Below, piece by piece: positions 6,057 through 19,483 of a stretch of DNA of 64,000 nucleotides. Both the position numbers and the translations under genes were made by a program. The notes beneath the pieces were generated by a model. The model was not told where the DNA came from and did no database searches. It saw nothing but the letters and a program-made list of their open reading frames with translations. This DNA comes from a bacterium (GTDB lineage: Bacteria; Patescibacteriota; Minisyncoccia; Phycocordibacterales; UBA5272): positions 8,837 through 72,836 of the forward strand of contig JAHFNB010000001.1 of assembly GCA_023267595.1 (NCBI GenBank). The letters run 5' to 3'. Position 1 is the first letter of the stretch; the number at the start of each line of letters is the position of its first letter.

Positions 6057-6160
6057 ATTATTCCAGATACGCGAAGTCTAGAGATTTTTGGAAGAAGACG
6101 TACATATACTAGTACGGCGACTGAGAAAAATCTCGTAGCGACAAAGTAGATGGGATGATT
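6057..6160. repeat. ~103-bp intergenic repeat element, copy 1
   Basis: ~93% identical to 19146..19248; contains nested inverted repeats gagattttt/aaaaatctc and cgtac/gtacg. Confidence 0.6.
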
Positions 6161-8900
6161 ATAGATTAAAGTTGTATTTTTTGAGTATTTCTGACTCCAC
6201 TTCTTCCTTTGGTCTTCCATACGTTAAATAACTTAATTCTTTCAGAGAATCGATTCGTGACATATCCCCTATCTTTGGTGGTAACGTAACAATATCAAAT
6301 GGTTTTCTTGGTTCACCATTAACAAGCATTTTTATATATGCATGGTAGTTTTCTATCTTCATGATATCTCCTGCAGTAAATGTAGGTGCAAATTGTTGCT
6401 CGAGATACTGTGCATCGTCTCCTCCTACACGAAATACGGCAAGTGATCCAACATTTCCAAATACTGCACCTTTTATATCTTCTGGTAATTGTGCAATGTA
6501 TTGATGTGCTACTGAAAGAGATAATCTGTACTTGCGTGCTTCAGATAAAATACTTGCGATACTTGGTGTCGTCACATTTTGGAATTCATCAATATACAAG
6601 AAAAAATCTGGTCGCTCTGTTGCGTTCACACGTGACATTGCTGCTTGAGATAATTTACCCACCAAGATAAGTCCAAGCAAATGAGAATTAATATCTCCAA
6701 GTCTTCCTTTTGAGAGATTTACTAGAAAAATCTTTTTCGTATCCATAATTTCTCTAAAATTAAAAGCAGATTTTTCCTGTGCAATAATCGGCCTCATAAT
6801 ATCATTTGACATAAACACATCAAACTTACTGTTAACATACTGTGTCCAGTTGGAGAGACCTTGCTCCCCTGTTGTTTTCTCTGCATTTTGCCAAAATTGT
6901 AAAAGAAGTGGATTTTTTGTTTTTGATAATTTGTAATCTCTGAAATCTTTATCAGAAAATACTCGTGATATTTCCAAAAGTGTATTTCCACTTTCTGGAT
7001 GTTCCATAACAAGAAGTGCTGCATTTCTAAAATATGATTCAAATCCTGGACCGCCGGAGACTTTCATATCAAATAATTTATTGAAAATGCCGAGTAATTC
7101 ATTAACCACAAATGTCTTTTGTTCGGGAAAATTCTTATCATATTCAAGCATATTTAATCCCATTGGACGCTCTATATAACTCGGATCAAAGTAAATGACA
7201 TCTTTGGTGCGCGCAGGTGGGATATGTGACAAAATATCTTGAATATCAGATCCATGAGGATCGATAAAGCAACACCCTTCCCCATTTTCAATATCTTGAA
7301 TAATCATATTTTTCAAGATAGATGTCTTTCCTGTTCCTGTTTGACCAATAACGTATAAATGTCTCATTCTATCCTCACGAGCAAAATGTATCGTTTGTTT
7401 TTGATCACGGAAATTATTTATACCAAGTACAATTCCTTCTGTTGGCATATCCATTGGGGCTTGGGCTGCTTTTTGTAACCTGACATTTGCCACATCTTTT
7501 GTCTGCATTGGAAAATGAAATACTGATGCGAGTTCAGAGATGTTAAGTGGGTAACTTTCATCTTCATTCCAAAGACGATATGAAAAGCGGTGAAGCAAGG
7601 CTTTTTGTTTTCTCCCATCTACTTCTTCCCACACAATACTATTTCCTCCAACAAGAGAAAACTGTGCGAACGCATTCTCCAAATCAGAACGTATTGCTTG
7701 TGCACGTGCAAAGTCTGCGGCTGAAGCAATAATACGAATATTTGTTTCAACAATTGTCTTTGCTAATTTTTCTTGTACATATTTCATTGCATTTTCTTCT
7801 ACCAATGATGGTTTCTTTTCTTTTTCCTTCTCTAATTGTTCTTTTGTTTTTGATGCTGAAAACATTTCACCAAGCACATGAAATGTTTCTTTAAGTGTGC
7901 TTTGTTTATCGATTACTCGTTTGAGTGTTTCTCCTTTTCGTAAATCCTCGAGCATATCACCGTATCGTTTTGCAAAGACATCTCCCGATGGACGTATGAG
8001 TAACTGTAGTGCAAGTCCTTCATTATCTTTTGCAATTTTTGTAAATGTTGAAAGAATAAGAGACATTGGATCGGCTTCCATGTTTTCATAGGTTTTTATA
8101 GGTAATGCAGGATGCGTACTTGCCTTAGCATACGAAGCAGCCGTGACTGCATGACTATGAAAAATATTATAATCATCTTTACACTCACGAACTTGTGCAG
8201 TTGGAAATACACCTAACACCACTTTTTCAAATAACGCCGCATAATCAATGTGTATTGCACAATAAAATGATGTCGTCGTAGTTCCGTTTGCTACACCCAG
8301 TTCAAGGGTATAATAATTCTTCTCTTTATTTGTTGCATCACTTGCGAGTGCCTGCATGGATGCATACCACTGTTCCATAAGTGCCATCATTTCCTTCATA
8401 CTCTTCACATTTCCCTCTGTTCCTTCTGGGAGTATCACTTCAAACAACTTCATATGAAGTGCTTTCCACTCATCTTTTGCAAGATTATTATCCATCACAT
8501 GACCAGAAAGAAGATACTGTACTAAGAATCTTTCAAAATCATCTTCCACTTCTGGATCATTTAATTCTTGCGCCATAATAAAGGCATTTTTCACCCCTTT
8601 ATCTGCCATAACTTGAGCAAGCATAGAAACTTGAGCATCAGTCTCTCGTGGAGATAACCATTCAAGCAATCTGTGTTTCTCTCCACTTGTTAATTGCACT
8701 TGTGGTGCAAGTATTTTTTCTTCTGGAACTTCTCTATAATCACGAACCACTTCACGAGCATGATCACTCTCTTTGAATCGATTTTCGAATCCTTTTGCAC
8801 GCTCAATTTTATTCGCAAGTTGCAAGCGTAAGTGTGCCACCTCTTCTTCAGGAGTAGTAAGCAGTGTATCCATACTGTACAGTTTACAGTTTACGGTCAA
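6159..8900 (-). CDS. FtsK/HerA/VirD4-superfamily P-loop ATPase (T4SS coupling-protein-like) with unknown ~450-aa N-terminal domain
   Basis: Walker A VIGQTGTGKTS, IDPHG, FDPSYIERPMGLNML, Walker B FFLYIDEFQN, RKYRLSLSVAHQYIAQL; no TM segment; starts 23 nt after map stop. Confidence 0.55.
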   Translation of the reverse strand: MTVNCKLYSMDTLLTTPEEEVAHLRLQLANKIERAKGFENRFKESDHAREVVRDYREVPEEKILAPQVQLTSGEKHRLLEWLSPRETDAQVSMLAQVMADKGVKNAFIMAQELNDPEVEDDFERFLVQYLLSGHVMDNNLAKDEWKALHMKLFEVILPEGTEGNVKSMKEMMALMEQWYASMQALASDATNKEKNYYTLELGVANGTTTTSFYCAIHIDYAALFEKVVLGVFPTAQVRECKDDYNIFHSHAVTAASYAKASTHPALPIKTYENMEADPMSLILSTFTKIAKDNEGLALQLLIRPSGDVFAKRYGDMLEDLRKGETLKRVIDKQSTLKETFHVLGEMFSASKTKEQLEKEKEKKPSLVEENAMKYVQEKLAKTIVETNIRIIASAADFARAQAIRSDLENAFAQFSLVGGNSIVWEEVDGRKQKALLHRFSYRLWNEDESYPLNISELASVFHFPMQTKDVANVRLQKAAQAPMDMPTEGIVLGINNFRDQKQTIHFAREDRMRHLYVIGQTGTGKTSILKNMIIQDIENGEGCCFIDPHGSDIQDILSHIPPARTKDVIYFDPSYIERPMGLNMLEYDKNFPEQKTFVVNELLGIFNKLFDMKVSGGPGFESYFRNAALLVMEHPESGNTLLEISRVFSDKDFRDYKLSKTKNPLLLQFWQNAEKTTGEQGLSNWTQYVNSKFDVFMSNDIMRPIIAQEKSAFNFREIMDTKKIFLVNLSKGRLGDINSHLLGLILVGKLSQAAMSRVNATERPDFFLYIDEFQNVTTPSIASILSEARKYRLSLSVAHQYIAQLPEDIKGAVFGNVGSLAVFRVGGDDAQYLEQQFAPTFTAGDIMKIENYHAYIKMLVNGEPRKPFDIVTLPPKIGDMSRIDSLKELSYLTYGRPKEEVESEILKKYNFNL

Positions 8901-10355: not shown

Positions 10356-11009
10356 TTATACTCCGTAGACTTTCTTCAATGTTTCTTGATCACCCTTTAA
10401 TCGTCTTCCTTCTTTAATGTTTTTATATAGTTTATATCCACTGTAAGCCAAGTAACTTGCTCCTGCGACAATAGGCAACACTCCAAATGTACTAGCAGCC
10501 AATATACCAGTACCTGTAACGACTCCTGTACTACCTGTTGCTAGAGTGCTAATAAATCCTGGAACTAATGATGCATTTACTAATATATAACCCATACCGG
10601 CTACAATAACTGGTAATGTAACTGCTTCCATTGCACCAAAGGAAGAAGATGTACTGGTAGATTTTATAATAGTCTCTGCTTCTCCATAATTTTTTCCCTG
10701 AATATTTGGATATTTTTGAAGAAGTTCATTATGTGCAACATCACTTTCATTTGGTGTAATTGGTGATACTACCTCTTTTTTCTCTGGAGTATTCATTGCT
10801 ACTGGCGTAGCAATTTGTTCAGGAGGTTTTGAGAGTGTTTCAGTTAATTTTTCTACACGCATTGTATCTTCTGACTTTGGTAATTCTGGAATTGGTGTCT
10901 CGAACTTTGCATCTAGGTTTTGTAGAAGAATTGCGGGAGATTCTACTTGTGCTGCCTCTTCAACAGATACTGGCTCAAAATCAATACTATTATTTGGTTT
11001 ATTTTCCAT
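10356..11009 (-). CDS. glycine-zipper membrane protein, paralog B of tandem pair
   Basis: N-terminal MENKPNNSIDFEPVSVEEAAQVESPAI identical to paralog A; acidic middle; Gly/Ala/Ser-rich C-terminal TM segments; start set at conserved MENK. Confidence 0.55.
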   Translation of the reverse strand: MENKPNNSIDFEPVSVEEAAQVESPAILLQNLDAKFETPIPELPKSEDTMRVEKLTETLSKPPEQIATPVAMNTPEKKEVVSPITPNESDVAHNELLQKYPNIQGKNYGEAETIIKSTSTSSSFGAMEAVTLPVIVAGMGYILVNASLVPGFISTLATGSTGVVTGTGILAASTFGVLPIVAGASYLAYSGYKLYKNIKEGRRLKGDQETLKKVYGV

Positions 11010-11016
11010 ATTTTTA

Positions 11017-11667
11017 TTAAGCAAAAACTTTTCTCGCACGATTCGTATTAATCATATTTTTTATCTTACGCACACCCTGATATAAAAGATATGCTGCACC
11101 ACCTACTGCAATAACTGGGCCGACTACAGAAGTAGCCCCCAACATAGTCATTTCAATTGTACCACTTGTTAAAAGAGCAGAAACTCCAGATGACAAAACC
11201 CCTTGTCCTGCAGAATTTGCCGCCGCAAGTCCAAGAAGAGACAACATTCCACCACCAATCACTGTAACACCAGATACAGTGGATTTTTCTTTTATATCCA
11301 ACCTTTCAAAATCTAGACCAGATTTTACTGTATTTTCTGGTGTGTCAGATGGACCCATTTTTCTTCCATAATCACCATAACTACTCATAAGTGAATTCAA
11401 AACTTGATTTTCTTTTACTTGACCTTCAACTGTATTTTCTTCACTCTTAATTTCTGGAGATGTAGGTAATTTTTCTTGTAGTATAAGTGAATCTTTTATT
11501 TCTTGAGCACGAATTATATCTTCTGGTTTTTGATCTACAGACTTTGATACTTCGTATTTTGCATCTAAATCTTCCGGAGGAATTGCAGGAGATTCTACTT
11601 TTGCTGCTTCTTCAACAGATACTGGCTCAAAATCAATACTATTATTTGGTTTATTTTCCATATCCAA
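11017..11667 (-). CDS. glycine-zipper membrane protein, paralog A of tandem pair
   Basis: same N-terminal 27 aa as paralog B, ~75 nt near-identical at DNA level; C-terminal GGGMLSLLGLAAANSAGQG...GPVIAVGGAAYLLY. Confidence 0.55.
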   Translation of the reverse strand: MDMENKPNNSIDFEPVSVEEAAKVESPAIPPEDLDAKYEVSKSVDQKPEDIIRAQEIKDSLILQEKLPTSPEIKSEENTVEGQVKENQVLNSLMSSYGDYGRKMGPSDTPENTVKSGLDFERLDIKEKSTVSGVTVIGGGMLSLLGLAAANSAGQGVLSSGVSALLTSGTIEMTMLGATSVVGPVIAVGGAAYLLYQGVRKIKNMINTNRARKVFA

Positions 11668-15669: not shown

Positions 15670-15813
15670 TGTTGTTATTAATTACACTATCTGAATATCA
15701 CGTGATTATGTACGTAAATCTTGGGTTTTTACCAAAACTTGCGGAGATACACGGATTACAGACAGTCACCGGATTCTAGCATAAAATCCCCTCCTTAGCA
15801 AGAATAAAAGAAA

Positions 15814-15836
15814 TCCGCGCCATAGGCGCGGAGAAA
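15814..15836 (-). terminator. GC-rich hairpin followed by T-run, terminator of the 156-aa gene
   Basis: tccgcgcc-atag-gcgcgga; on minus strand followed by atttctttt. Confidence 0.5.
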
Positions 15837-15849
15837 CCGAGTTTTACTT

Positions 15850-16320
15850 TTATCCGATACGTAACACACTACTTAGTCCTCGTAACTTCTTTTTTCTCTG
15901 TTCTATGAGTTTTGCTTTTTCATCACTAGAGAGAGCGACTCTTAATGTGTCTTCGAAATCTCTCTGCTCTCTTTCTGCCATCTTTTGACTTGTAATAGCA
16001 GCAAAGAATCCCCACGCAGAGCGTGCTTGACCTTGCTTATGCAGTGCACATAATCGAAATTCTTTTTGCCTCATGATTTCAGGATCTTGTGCATCAAGAG
16101 CATCTGCTATAACAATTAAAGAGTTAGGAAATGGAGGTCGTGTATCTTGATCATCATCTCGATATATCTCGATCGCCTCAGAAATATCTTTCTTCCTATA
16201 TTCAAAACCAGGACAATTTTGGAGAGAAAAATGATATCCTCGTATGTGCTCTACTTCATCTCTTTTTTTATGACCAGCCTCTTGATAGCCACAATTTCTA
16301 CAAATAAATCCGTAAGCCAT
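15850..16320 (-). CDS. hypothetical Cys/His-containing protein (possible zinc-ribbon N-terminus) inserted in spc operon
   Basis: 156 aa; N-terminal CRNCG...H...H...C; acidic/helical remainder; no family recognised. Confidence 0.4.
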   Translation of the reverse strand: MAYGFICRNCGYQEAGHKKRDEVEHIRGYHFSLQNCPGFEYRKKDISEAIEIYRDDDQDTRPPFPNSLIVIADALDAQDPEIMRQKEFRLCALHKQGQARSAWGFFAAITSQKMAEREQRDFEDTLRVALSSDEKAKLIEQRKKKLRGLSSVLRIG

Positions 16321-16383
16321 GATTCACCTCAAAGAACAAAAGTTACTTCCTACACTACTACACCGTAAAAGTGTGTCAACATA

Positions 16384-16905
16384 ATGAATTACATTATAAA
16401 AAAGTATATACTACAGTACATGCAAATTATTTTTTACGTATTGGAAGTTATTGGACTATGGAAAATGTTTGAAAAAGCACACGTTGCAGGATGGAAAGCA
16501 CTTATTCCTGTATATAGCACATACCACAAAGTTAAAATTGCTAATCGTTCTCTTTCTTTCTTTTGGTTTATGATTTCTCCTTTTATTGGTGTATTTATTA
16601 CAGTGATATTATGGGGAATTATTGGTCTTTTTTCTTCAATACTAGGAGATACTTCCCCTCTCATTACTCTCTTCTCTGATCTAGTAAGTAGAACTGTCCC
16701 ATTTTTTGTTGGTCTCTTTGTTATCTTAGTTCTTATCGTTACACTACCACTTGGTATTATTTTGCAATATGATATTGCAAAATCATTTGGTAAAGGTGCT
16801 TGGATGACTGTAGGATTAGTCCTTGTTCCTTTTATCTGTAACTTAGTCTTAGGATACGGAAAAGCAGAATATAAAAAAATACATAGAACAAAAGAAGAAC
16901 AGTAA
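16384..16905 (+). CDS. DUF5684-like small polytopic membrane protein
   Basis: 173 aa; motif LWKMFEKAHVAGWKALIPVYSTYHKVKIA plus 3-4 TM helices; opposite strand to flanking ribosomal genes. Confidence 0.45.
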   Translation: MNYIIKKYILQYMQIIFYVLEVIGLWKMFEKAHVAGWKALIPVYSTYHKVKIANRSLSFFWFMISPFIGVFITVILWGIIGLFSSILGDTSPLITLFSDLVSRTVPFFVGLFVILVLIVTLPLGIILQYDIAKSFGKGAWMTVGLVLVPFICNLVLGYGKAEYKKIHRTKEEQ

Positions 16906-16938
16906 ATAAAAAACCAGTCCATAGGACTGGTTTTTTAT

Positions 16939-18303
16939 TTACCAAGCAATCGGCATTGCATTTCCTGTAACTGTTGTCTGTGCAGTTCCTACTACTTGTC
17001 CAGATGGATTTGTAATATTTGCAATAAATACAACATCTTGTTTATAGTACGTACTATTTGTAATCATTGCAGGAATCTCCTGTTGAGCACTATTAAGCGT
17101 AAATGGCATTGCAAACTCCTGACCACATGGAATACCTGCTACGGTTACTTGTACATTAGCAATAGGACATACTGCGTGAATACGTAATGAGTATTGACCA
17201 TAAATACTTGCATCATAGTAATTACTTGCAGGAATGTTGATGTAAAGTCTGAATAATTCACCAGAGTTTACTGGGTTCTTATTTGCAGAGATAACTACAT
17301 TACCATAGAAAGAATATGGACGTTTGATAAAGATTGGAGAAACGGCTGCGCGGAATGTAGAGGTAACACCTGCAATATCCGTAAGAGGAGTTGTGATAAC
17401 AATACGATATGAACCTTGAGCATAATTTTGTGCACATGATCCAGTACAAAGATAATCTAGAATATCTTTTGTAAGAGTAAACGTAGCAGAATTACCACTT
17501 GTTGTCATAATGTACTTACTTTGTCCAGAACTATTTTCAAGGAGAATCTGATACTGACTCGCATTAATATTATTTGTAGTCCATGTAACATTTACCGTAT
17601 CTCCTTCATTGTAATGACTGTCAGTTCCTGGTGAAGAAATAGAGAGTGTCCCTGGTTGTGGAATAAGACCATAGGTATATCCAATGTTTGGACTGTAGAC
17701 AATATTTGTACCATATACAAACGATGTATTTGTTGTTGCAGGTGTAATTACATTTGTCGTAATTGGATTGTATGAATTATATGCGGTATAGTTTGAACCT
17801 GTTGTTCCGTACGTATACGTTGGATTATTTGAGTTAGTGATGATAGTCGATGTGATATTTTTTACATATGGATCATATGTATCTACAACTGTTGTACCTG
17901 CTGAATATCCATAATCATAATTTGAATATGATGTATTGTATGTATTTGAATTGTAGGTATTTCCATTACAAAGTTGTGCATTGATTAGATCACGTGTTGA
18001 TTGTCCTACTGTACCTGTTGTAAGAAGACCACTATTTGATTGAAAAGACACAACTGCAGAATACGTAGCCGGACCAAAGTAACCATTTGGTGTTGCATAG
18101 AGATAACCACGTCCTGCTAGAAAGTTTTGAAGTGTGTATACATCTTCATTTTCAGAACCAGACTGAAGTGTACGAGTGATAGATGTACCACATCCATAAT
18201 TATTATAATCGGTAAAAATACCTGCAAAGGTAAATGTTGGAGTACTGAGGAAAAATCCCACAAATCCAAGGAGAAAAATACTGTTTTTGATTCCTGTTTT
18301 CAT
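16939..18303 (-). CDS. secreted protein: signal peptide + peptidoglycan-binding (PG_binding_1-like) domain + N/T/Y/S-rich low-complexity linker + Cys-containing C-terminal domain
   Basis: N-terminal MKTGIKNSIFLLGFVGFFLSTPTFTFA; DVYTLQNFLAGRGYL...GPATYSAVVSFQ matches PG-binding helix pattern; ~120-aa N/Y/T/S-rich repeat-like region. Confidence 0.6.
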   Translation of the reverse strand: MKTGIKNSIFLLGFVGFFLSTPTFTFAGIFTDYNNYGCGTSITRTLQSGSENEDVYTLQNFLAGRGYLYATPNGYFGPATYSAVVSFQSNSGLLTTGTVGQSTRDLINAQLCNGNTYNSNTYNTSYSNYDYGYSAGTTVVDTYDPYVKNITSTIITNSNNPTYTYGTTGSNYTAYNSYNPITTNVITPATTNTSFVYGTNIVYSPNIGYTYGLIPQPGTLSISSPGTDSHYNEGDTVNVTWTTNNINASQYQILLENSSGQSKYIMTTSGNSATFTLTKDILDYLCTGSCAQNYAQGSYRIVITTPLTDIAGVTSTFRAAVSPIFIKRPYSFYGNVVISANKNPVNSGELFRLYINIPASNYYDASIYGQYSLRIHAVCPIANVQVTVAGIPCGQEFAMPFTLNSAQQEIPAMITNSTYYKQDVVFIANITNPSGQVVGTAQTTVTGNAMPIAW

Positions 18304-18372
18304 GGCCTAACCCTACACTATATTTACTTTATTGTCAAGATTCCTCAAAAAGATGTCGGGAGAAAACAAAAA

Positions 18373-18390
18373 TTCCCCTTAAAGGGGAAC
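18373..18390. terminator. bidirectional hairpin terminator immediately downstream of rplE
   Basis: ttcccc-ttaaa-ggggaa flanked by T-runs on both strands. Confidence 0.5.
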
Positions 18391-18412
18391 TTTTGTTTCT
18401 TTTTTAACTGTT

Positions 18413-18973
18413 TTACGCCTTCTTAAACGGAATACCAATAAGTTCAAAAAATGCTGTCGCCTCCTCTTTTGTCTTTGCAGTTGTTCCAAGAGTAATTGCC
18501 ATTCCAAATATATCCTTTAATTCTTCATCTTTAATTTCTGGGAAAATAGTATGTTCTTTGATACCAAATGTCATATTTCCAATATTATCCACTGATGTCT
18601 TATTGAGTCCACGAAAGTCCTTAGTACGAGGAAGAGATACGTTTAATACCTTGTCTAAGAATCCAAACATACGTGCACCACGAAGTGTTACTGCAACACC
18701 GATTGGATCTCCGATACGTGTCTTAAATGAAGCAACGGCTTGCTTTGCTTTGCGAAGTGTTGGACGTTGTCCTGTAATCTTTGTAAGGCGATCAATTACG
18801 AGATCATTTCGCTTACGATCTTTCTTCATTGCAGTTCCTGTTGCGACAGAAACACTTACCTTTACTAAGTGAGGTGATGCAAGTTTATTTTTATATCCGA
18901 ATTGCTTTGCTAATGTTGCATACGCAAGTTCCTGCTTTTCTTTTACTCCTATAAATTCACTTTTCTTTGCCAT
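18413..18973 (-). CDS. rplE: 50S ribosomal protein L5
   Basis: ITGQRPTLRKAKQAVASFKTRIGDPIGVAVTLRG... Confidence 0.9.
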   Translation of the reverse strand: MAKKSEFIGVKEKQELAYATLAKQFGYKNKLASPHLVKVSVSVATGTAMKKDRKRNDLVIDRLTKITGQRPTLRKAKQAVASFKTRIGDPIGVAVTLRGARMFGFLDKVLNVSLPRTKDFRGLNKTSVDNIGNMTFGIKEHTIFPEIKDEELKDIFGMAITLGTTAKTKEEATAFFELIGIPFKKA

Positions 18974-19105
18974 ATATTTTTTGTGTAAGCACGATTGGTC
19001 TCTTTCGAGAACGTCGTACGCGCTTATCTTGCGGATAGATTCTATCTCGCGTTATTAATTGGTAGACCTATACTCTACTATAAAATTAATACTTTGTAAA
19101 ATAAA

Positions 19106-19130
19106 GGGCGATGCTTGTAGCATCGCCCTT
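19106..19130. terminator. palindromic hairpin (agggcgatgcttgtagcatcgccct) between rplX and rplE
   Basis: perfect 10-bp stem; near-identical core to hairpin at 57394..57422. Confidence 0.4.
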
Positions 19131-19145
19131 TATAAAAAGTAAGAA

Positions 19146-19248
19146 ATTATTCCAGATAGGCGAAGCCTGGAGATTTTTGGAAGAAGACGTACACACTAGT
19201 ACGGCGACTGAGAAAAATCTCGTAGCGACAAAATAGATGAGATGATTT
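19146..19248. repeat. ~103-bp intergenic repeat element, copy 2
   Basis: ~93% identical to 6057..6160, same orientation; lies between rplX stop and rplE start. Confidence 0.6.
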
Positions 19249-19483
19249 ATGACTTTTTAACTTTCTTTTCGGCAAGTTTCACATTTGATGCGTCCATTGG
19301 CATTGCTACATCTATAATTCCACCTTTCTCCCCTGCTTTCTTTGGGCGAGTATGCTTCTTCATAAGGTTAAGTCCTTCAAGGACTACTTTATTTTCTGCG
19401 CGTAAAACACGAGCAACAGTCCCTGACTTTCCTTTTTCTTTACCTGCAATCACTATTACTTTATCTCCTTTTTTTACTTGCAT
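19247..19483 (-). CDS. rplX: 50S ribosomal protein L24
   Basis: KOW motif MQVKKGDKVIVIAGKEKGKSGTV. Confidence 0.9.
   Translation of the reverse strand: MQVKKGDKVIVIAGKEKGKSGTVARVLRAENKVVLEGLNLMKKHTRPKKAGEKGGIIDVAMPMDASNVKLAEKKVKKS

Follow-up and report, generated by a model that had tools for sequence, protein, structure and literature searches.

The 64,000-nucleotide (nt) stretch of DNA analysed in this work, hereafter called the window (assembly GCA_023267595.1, contig JAHFNB010000001.1, positions 8,837 to 72,836), carries an S10-spc ribosomal-protein cluster, and we were concerned with the junction between two genes of this cluster, rplE (ribosomal protein L5) and rpsN (S14). An earlier note, made from the sequence alone, had reported that 2.7 kb with three open reading frames (ORFs) separates the two genes, and this was borne out by ORF and Pfam calls. 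We refer to the three products, by their length in amino acids (aa), as P454, P173 and P156. The 2.7-kb gap is far beyond the usual state, because rplE and rpsN are only 14-214 nt apart in 16 outgroup genomes. The earlier note interpreted the three genes as a foreign module recently inserted into the operon. The whole ribosomal-protein cluster is on the minus strand of the window, and the features of the region are given below in the direction of transcription.

19247..19483, minus: rplX (L24; KOW/ribosomal_L24), ORF closing the upstream ribosomal-protein unit
19101..19133, minus: terminator-like hairpin 3' of rplX, 15-nt perfect arms, then TATTTT
19072..19100, minus: promoter-like site of rplE, TTTACA, 17 nt, TAGAGT
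18974..19071, minus: conserved 5' leader of rplE, AAGCG(A)CGUAUAACGU, a hairpin, then CCAAUCGUGCUUAC
18413..18973, minus: rplE (L5), in effect a single-gene unit; Pfam Ribosomal_L5 and L5_C
18374..18389, minus: terminator-like hairpin 3' of rplE, TTCCCCTTTAAGGGGA, then a T-run
18304..18338, minus: predicted promoter of P454, TTGACA at 18338-18333, 17-nt spacer, TAGGGT at 18315-18310, 6 nt, ATG at 18303
16939..18303, minus: P454 ORF, 454 aa; signal peptide, PG_binding_1, linker, two predicted beta-sandwich domains
16901..16943, no strand assigned: bidirectional terminator hairpin common to the convergent P454 and DUF5684 genes, 19-20 bp, 19-nt perfect arms
16384..16905, plus: P173 ORF, 173 aa, DUF5684 membrane protein (Pfam); alternative start at 16420
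15850..16320, minus: P156 ORF, 156 aa, predicted CCHC zinc knuckle and helical/coiled-coil part; sporadic accessory gene of the junction
15814..15832, minus: terminator-like hairpin 3' of P156, TCCGCGCC-TAT-GGCGCGGA, then TTTCTTTTAT; 8 bp, 7 of them GC
15773..15801, minus: promoter-like site of rpsN, TTGCTA, 17 nt including TG, TAGAAT
15680..15772, minus: structured 5' leader of rpsN, internal loop (AAUCC and GAUAU invariant) surrounded by three helices
15484..15669, minus: rpsN, zinc-type S14 of 61 aa (Pfam Ribosomal_S14), heading the rpsN-rpsH-rplF-rplR-rpsE-rplO-secY unit

The spacer between rplX and rplE is 273 nt long. Gene callers choose the start at M13 for P173, which gives a protein of 161 aa. 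The terminator-like hairpins that the earlier note had placed at the two ends of the gap were located at 15814-15832 and 18374-18389; those at 16901-16943 and 19101-19133 come in addition to its list.

P454 as a resident of the junction

The region was fetched with L5, taking one genome per species, from 49 metagenome-assembled genomes of Nomurabacteria/Paceibacterota and from the 16 outgroups, and L24, L5, S14, S8, L6 and the three query proteins were located in each fetched locus (loci are designated below by L numbers). Twenty-six loci belonged to readable close relatives, i.e. to those with an L5 identity of at least 76% and with enough sequence after rplE. A full-length P454 orthologue, 40-79% identical to the protein of the window, was found between rplE and rpsN, in operon orientation, in 24 of these 26 species-level relatives, and the same placement was seen in five independent metagenome contigs that were reached via protein look-ups (L070 and L074-L077). 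When grouped at 90% identity, the family has at least 120 full-length clusters, which all share the architecture and a length of about 450 aa. From its presence in 24 of the 26 readable relatives and in the further metagenome contigs we infer that P454 is an old, clade-typical resident of the junction. The start of P454 is ~100-250 nt from rplE in 10 of 25 loci, whereas elsewhere up to 5 kb of unrelated cargo intervenes. The arrangement is unusual in comparison with bacteria in general, as the earlier note had remarked, but it is typical of the lineage within its own clade.

The peptidoglycan-binding-type domain that had been proposed for P454 passed the check with hidden Markov models (HMMs): residues 52-106 match PG_binding_1 (PF01471) with E=2.6e-13 and 50.4 bits, against a gathering cut-off of 23. 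The domain extends over about residues 40-112 and has the three-helix bundle fold of known peptidoglycan-binding domains. It is preceded by a signal peptide with one N-terminal hydrophobic segment (residues 9-27) and followed by a linker (residues 113-200), which consists of 24% T, 18% N, 16% Y and 10% S. The N/Y/T/S-rich character of this stretch had been recognised correctly, its length is, however, ~88 residues and not ~120. The linker is disordered in the AlphaFold2 model, and both its length and its sequence vary between species. The C-terminal half is confidently predicted to form two immunoglobulin (Ig)/fibronectin type III (FN3)-like beta-sandwich domains, at residues ~200-330 and ~335-450. 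P454 has six cysteines in total, and two invariant pairs, C286/C290 and C379/C393, are in the predicted beta-sandwich domains, consistent with the Cys-containing C-terminal domain of the earlier description.

In the Joint Genome Institute (JGI) annotation P454 is named 'peptidoglycan hydrolase-like protein with peptidoglycan-binding domain', and SleB and hydrolase models of NCBIfam as well as endolysin families of PHROGs match it weakly. These would be in line with a peptidoglycan hydrolase or an endolysin-like remnant, possibly derived from a prophage. The matches span, however, only residues ~41-146, which is the binding domain and a bit of the linker, and their scores are far under the cut-offs of the models (39 bits vs 236); moreover, there are no phage genes near P454. 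No catalytic domain (lytic transglycosylase, amidase or peptidase) could be detected by profile scans or in the predicted structure. We consider the hydrolase or endolysin origin exceedingly unlikely. Because P454 has no catalytic domain, and the 'hydrolase' names go back to the binding domain, we read it as non-enzymatic; our best guess, based on the predicted folds, is that it is an exported, wall-anchored surface protein with a structural or adhesive role. It is probably abundant on the cell surface.

The sequence upstream of P454 is conserved to an unusual degree of regularity: all 24 orthologous loci have a perfect TTGACA, a spacer of exactly 17 nt, a -10 element (TAGGGT or TAGGAT in 23 loci, TATACT in one), a further 6-9 nt and the ATG. 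P454 is the sole ORF of the window with a TTGACA-17-TAGGGT-ATG arrangement. In each of the 24 loci the geometry is that of a leaderless promoter, with a -10 element that would place the start of transcription at the start codon or at most ~3 nt from it. Because transcription from this promoter would begin at or beside the ATG, the sequence suggests that the P454 mRNA is leaderless, and it is probably transcribed strongly and constitutively. TAGGGT was also considered as a Shine-Dalgarno sequence instead of a -10 element. This was judged less likely, because only 4 of the 68 long ORFs of the window have a Shine-Dalgarno-like 4-mer at -18 to -4, because TTGACA is exactly 17 nt away in all 24 loci, because no other ORF of the window is so arranged, and because the promoters of rplE and rpsN share the TAGnnT type of -10 element. 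All three promoters that were examined (P454, rplE and rpsN) have -10 hexamers of the TAGnnT form. There are hints in these sequences that translation initiation in this lineage may be largely independent of Shine-Dalgarno sequences, and that the lineage may have its own -10 preference.

Variable content of the gap

The earlier note had assigned the gene on the opposite strand to a DUF5684-like membrane protein. This assignment holds: P173 matches DUF5684 (PF18936) with E=9.1e-14 and 52.3 bits (gathering cut-off 27.4), and its three hydrophobic 19-mers give it a polytopic integral-membrane character. The homologues P0124-P0128 likewise carry PF18936. The closest homologues of P173 are at most 35% identical to it and occur in unrelated genomic contexts. 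In 12 of 24 loci the slot convergent to and right after P454 is occupied by a 135-aa DUF2177 membrane protein in the same orientation, and DUF2177 is found in this slot also in L070, L074, L075 and L077. We considered whether P173 is a diverged DUF2177 protein (PF09945); this was rejected on an hhalign probability of 1.7% and the absence of any DUF2177 match at E<=1. In a neighbour-joining tree of P454 the loci with DUF2177 are scattered over the whole tree, which suggests that DUF2177 is ancestral in the slot, while those with P156 fall in two separate clades. Of the three genes of the gap only the DUF5684 gene looks, from these comparisons, like a lineage-specific replacement.

In a tblastn search of the 24 species-level relatives neither P173 nor P156 was found, with the exception of a P156 homologue in the sister lineage L001 (65% identity; the L5 proteins are 93% identical). 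The question raised earlier, whether close relatives carry the same genes at this place, has thus a divided answer: P454 is lineage-typical at the junction, but P173 and P156 are mostly absent from the relatives. In L001 (10545-15236) and L002, also of the sister lineage, the place after P156 where rpsN would be expected is taken by a giant protein (>1564 aa) with two PG_binding_1, six fn3 and one RGI_lyase beta domain, and the contig ends before rpsN. An exhaustive HMMER search for P156 yielded 35 representatives among 1.84 billion proteins. Six family members were looked up, and two more of them are at the same junction: in L070 the order is rplE, P454, P156 homologue, DUF2177 (opposite strand), rpsN, and in a JGI contig the P156 homologue is followed by a gap long enough for an uncalled rpsN, and then by rpsH. 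A more distant member (L072) is in an ordinary chromosomal context of the Candidate Phyla Radiation (CPR). The contigs L069, L071 and L073 are too short for called genes to show the context of P156; in L069 and L071 the rpsN leader motif (see below) and the start of rpsN are downstream of the P156 homologue.

P156 had been described as having an N-terminal CxxC...H...H...C arrangement. The residues in question are C7, C10, H17, H25, H30 and C36; in the family (n=36) C7, C10 and H17 never vary and at least 90% of the members have C36, but H25 and H30 are not conserved, hence the motif is CCHC. In the predicted structure (pLDDT, i.e. predicted local distance difference test score, 89) an N-terminal CCHC knuckle leads into a long helical hairpin or coiled coil. 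P156 had no match above threshold in Pfam, NCBIfam, PHROGs or PADLOC, it could not be placed in a described zinc-finger family of Pfam or NCBIfam or by a structural match, and no transmembrane segment, signal peptide or informative structural neighbour was found for it. Our best guess, made with low confidence from the model, is a small cytoplasmic zinc-dependent factor binding nucleic acid or protein. P156 and P173 are tied to P454 by position alone.

The distance between rplE and rpsN varies in the P454 clade from 1.9 kb to more than 7 kb, and 119 of the 203 ORFs called downstream of rplE in all loci are singletons. The recognisable cargo is mostly of envelope type: proteins of 1000-1600 aa with PG_binding_1, fn3, Peptidase_S74 or C1q domains, and also RTX repeats, pilin-like proteins, an SLT transglycosylase and some P-loop kinase-like proteins. 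For most of the cargo Pfam gave no match; of 28 further ORFs, only 3 were matched. In more distant Paceibacteria the junction is also broken, by 1.3-1.9 kb with other genes, including pilin-like proteins, and in some of them rplE and rpsN are no longer found within 10 kb of each other. The rplX-rplE gap, which is 273 nt in the window, measures 2-4.3 kb in L007, L011, L014, L018, L025, L026, L027 and L029; because this gap is also expanded in many relatives, rplE is bordered by variable regions on both sides.

Differences exist even between near-identical strains. The P454 proteins of L074 and L075 are identical and the flanks are 99.8% and 99.2% identical, yet between DUF2177 and rpsN L075 has an additional segment of 1.28 kb (about 6808-8121), on which a 391-aa gene is located. 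The right boundary of the segment is exactly at the rpsN -10 element, and it is clean, without flanking repeats. The 391-aa gene resembles an AAA_28-type ORF at the same position in L019.

No integrase, transposase or recombinase was found by Pfam, NCBIfam and PHROGs scans in the three genes of the gap, and none among 48 scanned ORFs located downstream of rplE in the relatives (38 from islands of the P454 clade and 10 from more distant relatives). The gap of the window has no flanking direct or inverted repeats, just terminator hairpins and short chance repeats, and no tRNA target, the nearest tRNAs being at 43-44 kb. With a yardstick of 2 standard deviations of the window's genes, the composition of the three genes is not deviant (GC z -0.6, -1.7 and +0.15; z of the GC content at third codon positions -0.8, -0.5 and -0.15). 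PHROGs and PADLOC gave no phage or defence signal for the three proteins apart from the endolysin PHROG similarity of the peptidoglycan-binding domain, and phage and defence interpretations were dropped on this ground.

These results bear on the proposal of the earlier note that the three genes form a foreign module acquired in this genome by recent horizontal transfer into the rplE-rpsN junction. The proposal could draw on the 2.7 kb present here vs 14-214 nt in the outgroups, on P173 being without a close relative (best homologue about 35% identical), on the rarity of P156, and on the GC content of the P173 region, the lowest of the three (0.312, z = -1.7). On the other hand, recent insertion is already refuted for P454, since 24 of 26 relatives, and other contigs as well, have this gene in the same position. 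In other lineages, too, the junction holds P156 homologues (35-65% identity), the composition of all three genes is within 2 standard deviations, and integrase, transposase, repeats and phage signal are all missing at the gap. The three genes differ, furthermore, in strand, and because their phyletic distributions, promoters and terminators are all different as well, they do not make up a module. We regard a recent three-gene transfer as very unlikely, and the 'foreign module' label is, by these comparisons, not supported.

It is also conceivable that P454 is functionally tied to the ribosomal operon, for instance through read-through from rplE, by which the amount of wall protein would scale with growth rate, and that it forms a system with the neighbouring membrane protein and P156. 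P454 is in operon orientation and has stayed within the cluster throughout the clade; it starts shortly after rplE in 10 of 25 loci, and about half of the loci have a small membrane protein convergent to it. However, P454 has its own perfectly conserved promoter, a terminator follows rplE in the window and in several relatives, and other relatives have rplE and P454 separated by as much as 5 kb of unrelated cargo. The membrane-protein slot is empty in about half of the loci and taken by a non-homologous family in the window, and P156 is absent from most loci. Such a tie seems to us unlikely.

Promoters and RNA leaders of the ribosomal-protein units

The rplE -10 element (TAGAGT, TAGATT or TAGAAT) is at the same upstream position in 25 of 28 relatives. 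The RNAalifold consensus of the rplE leader has 12 pairs, 6 of them with compensatory changes, which we consider moderate support for the structure. The leader motif, AAGCGACGUAUAACGU ... CCAAUCGUGCUUAC, has its 3' strand near the start codon and differs from the rpsN leader; a related motif, GUGAYGUAYA ... UCGUGC, is present in the more distant relatives L030-L035, L039 and L048. The rplE leader had no match in Rfam.

The rpsN promoter was found in 24 of 30 relatives scanned; it is recognised by TTGnnA at -35 and by a conserved extended -10 element, TGnTAnnAT, which is mostly TGGTAGTAT. Between promoter and rpsN there is a structured leader in 28 loci, and the distance from the end of its core to the ATG is 5-156 nt (10 nt in the window). 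The leader was noted in the window and in L004-L029, L036, L037, L040, L044, L045, L047 and L069-L071. In the alignment of the 28 sequences 91.4% of the cells are paired, as against 29-50% in slid controls, 18 of the 20 pairs show compensatory changes, and none of 500 shuffles reached the observed values. The rpsN leader had no match in Rfam, either at the gathering threshold or at E<=10, and rpsN, rpsH and Patescibacteria are absent from a survey of ribosomal leaders (PMC7247131). We consider it, on comparative grounds, a candidate for a new autoregulatory ribosomal-protein leader of Paceibacteria.

By analogy with the E. coli spc operon, S8 is suspected to be the ligand of the rpsN leader. 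The loop of the leader (UAAUCC / GAUAUUC) resembles what we take to be the S8-binding core of E. coli helix 21, A595/A596 and A640-U641-A642, and differs from it at the positions that presumably correspond to G597-C643, where it has U and U. The S8 site of helix 21 includes an A595-(A596-U644) base triple and the invariant A642 (PMC4176348). For exact mimicry of helix 21 of the 16S rRNA by the leader no support was obtained: a single strict pattern search for 16S genes having TAATCC...GATATT beyond the 515 region gave none, and neither the window nor any of the retrieved loci contains a 16S gene. The S8 idea was left as an analogy.

Hairpins comparable to the one 3' of rplE in the window are found after rplE in several relatives; clade-wide conservation of the terminators is shown here by example only, because the finder, which looked for perfect stems, missed many hairpins in the relatives. 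The terminators, together with the conserved promoters and leaders, give comparative support to the view of the earlier note that rplE is transcriptionally isolated and that transcription would restart before rpsN.

Two other places of the cluster also have non-ribosomal genes. Between secY and adk, the minus strand of the window (10356-11667) has tandem paralogous ORFs of 216 and 227 aa, which have a common N-terminus (MENKPNNSIDFEPVSVEEAA) and a hydrophobic C-terminal region and are without Pfam match. They are missing from most relatives, and the secY-adk gap is ~0.1-1.9 kb among the close relatives, i.e. this is a second variable junction of the same ribosomal-protein cluster. Directly downstream of map (6159-8900, minus strand) there is a gene for a 913-aa protein, annotated in the contig as DUF8128, with weak matches to ATPase families of the type IV secretion coupling-protein/FtsK-like kind (TrwB_AAD_bind, TraG-D_C). 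It extends the run of non-ribosomal genes joined to the cluster.

Interpretation and comparison with known systems

The explanation that we favour, with a probability of about 0.78, is that in this Nomurabacteria/Paceibacterota clade the spc cluster has an old break, permissive to other genes, at the rplE-rpsN junction, and that this break is not the scar of a recent insertion. The cluster would be split into units: one ending with rplN-rplX and a terminator, a second consisting of promoter, leader, rplE and terminator, and a third running from promoter and leader through rpsN, rpsH and rplF onward. Because each unit would have its own promoter and, presumably, an autoregulatory leader, DNA between the units would leave the expression of the ribosomal proteins undisturbed, and so the gap could hold other genes. 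Its content would be of three kinds. The first is P454, fixed throughout the clade and equipped with its own near-consensus promoter; after export it would bind peptidoglycan by the PG_binding_1 domain, the linker would cross the wall, and the two Ig-like domains, containing disulfides, would face outward. The second is the convergent slot for a small membrane protein, ancestrally DUF2177 and here the unrelated DUF5684. The third is variable cargo that may be gained and lost even between strains, represented here by P156. The ancestral order may have been rplE, P454, DUF2177 on the opposite strand and rpsN, followed by repeated losses; DUF5684 would be a non-homologous replacement in this lineage, and P156 would have been sporadically retained or transferred. 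The turnover most likely goes back to homologous recombination within the flanking ribosomal genes and leaders, which are highly conserved, and not to a mobile element.

It must be noted that several points weigh against this explanation. The comparison sequences are metagenome assemblies throughout, and the arrangement is not universal: in L014 and L030, the remaining two of the 26 readable relatives, neither P454 nor rpsN is within 10 kb of rplE. The promoters, the terminators and the leaderless start are predictions from consensus and comparison, and a promoter scanner run over the whole region gave no more sites than shuffled sequence (48, vs 49 expected). Recombination is deduced only from the clean boundaries and the missing signatures of mobile elements, and the ancestral states were read from a neighbour-joining tree without support values. 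As to the proteins, the proposed role of P454 is derived from folds that are common to many unrelated surface proteins, P173 belongs to a family without known function, and P156 and DUF5684 have no assigned function.

A more far-reaching version, which we put forward as a speculation and hold to be doubtful, is that the cluster serves as a recombination-anchored cassette site for surface genes. The rplE and rpsN units would be homology arms, between which natural transformation would swap genes for giant fibre-like, peptidoglycan-binding and pilin-like proteins. P454, made from a leaderless mRNA, would be a major wall-anchored surface protein, possibly surface-layer-like or involved in host attachment, and with the leaders of rpsN and rplE Patescibacteria would have two new autoregulatory RNAs of ribosomal-protein genes that are peculiar to them.

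CPR phylogenomics and binning have the S10-spc cluster as their backbone, and the cluster is regarded as a near-invariant syntenic block. Its routine interruption in one clade by 2 to more than 7 kb of variable, strain-polymorphic genes, mostly orphans and of surface type, matters for quality checks based on synteny, and the rplE-rpsN junction offers a natural marker locus for strain typing. P454 is a concrete candidate for a surface protein, probably highly expressed, of an uncultured lineage, which could be targeted by antibodies or proteomics and used to approach questions of attachment. The leaders of rpsN and rplE are candidates for ribosomal-protein autoregulation in Patescibacteria, a group for which no such regulatory RNA was found in Rfam or in PMC7247131. 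The rpsN leader without an Rfam family, the leaderless promoter proposed for P454 and the strain-level polymorphism inside a ribosomal-protein cluster are useful by-products of this work.

It is instructive to compare the components of the junction with known systems. The N-terminal domain of P454 resembles, above the HMM threshold, the PG_binding_1 modules of SleB, CtpB, endolysins and L,D-transpeptidases, but in these proteins the module is joined to a catalytic domain. In having tandem beta-sandwich domains that would be held beyond the wall on a spacer, P454 is similar to wall-anchored Ig-domain adhesins, pilins and S-layer proteins (invasin, LPXTG pilins, archaeal S-layer subunits). Its domains are, however, only 3-18% identical to those of these proteins, and its anchoring would be non-covalent, via PG_binding_1, unlike anchoring by LPXTG/sortase or S-layer homology (SLH) domains. 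With 45-50% identity between species, it is also rather conserved for a host-contact adhesin.

Leaderless mRNAs are common in Actinobacteria, Deinococcus and archaea. The P454 promoter fits this pattern, since only 6-9 nt separate its -10 element from the ATG, too few for a 5' untranslated region or a Shine-Dalgarno sequence; it differs in that the case is made from sequence alone, and in that the neighbouring ribosomal-protein units have leaders of ~100 nt. With the E. coli spc operon the window shares the gene order, rplN-rplX-rplE-rpsN-rpsH-rplF-rplR-rpsE-(L30 gene absent)-rplO-secY, and a structured RNA at the head of the unit encoding S8. Whereas in E. coli S8 autoregulation acts at the start of rplE, the cluster of the window falls into three or more units, its candidate regulatory RNA precedes rpsN and not rplE, and rplE has another leader.

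Chromosomal hot spots, where genes are gained and lost between conserved core genes, are a known kind of locus, and the rplE-rpsN junction has much in common with them: its boundaries are fixed in conserved core genes, its content differs between species and between near-identical strains, and it has many orphan genes, with no integrase needed. Core-gene-flanked hot spots, PG_binding_1 surface proteins and ribosomal-protein leaders are, each by itself, already known kinds. The junction described here differs from other hot spots in being inside the S10-spc cluster, normally among the most syntenic regions, in holding one gene, P454, that is fixed in the clade, and in having the promoters and leaders of ribosomal genes as its boundaries.

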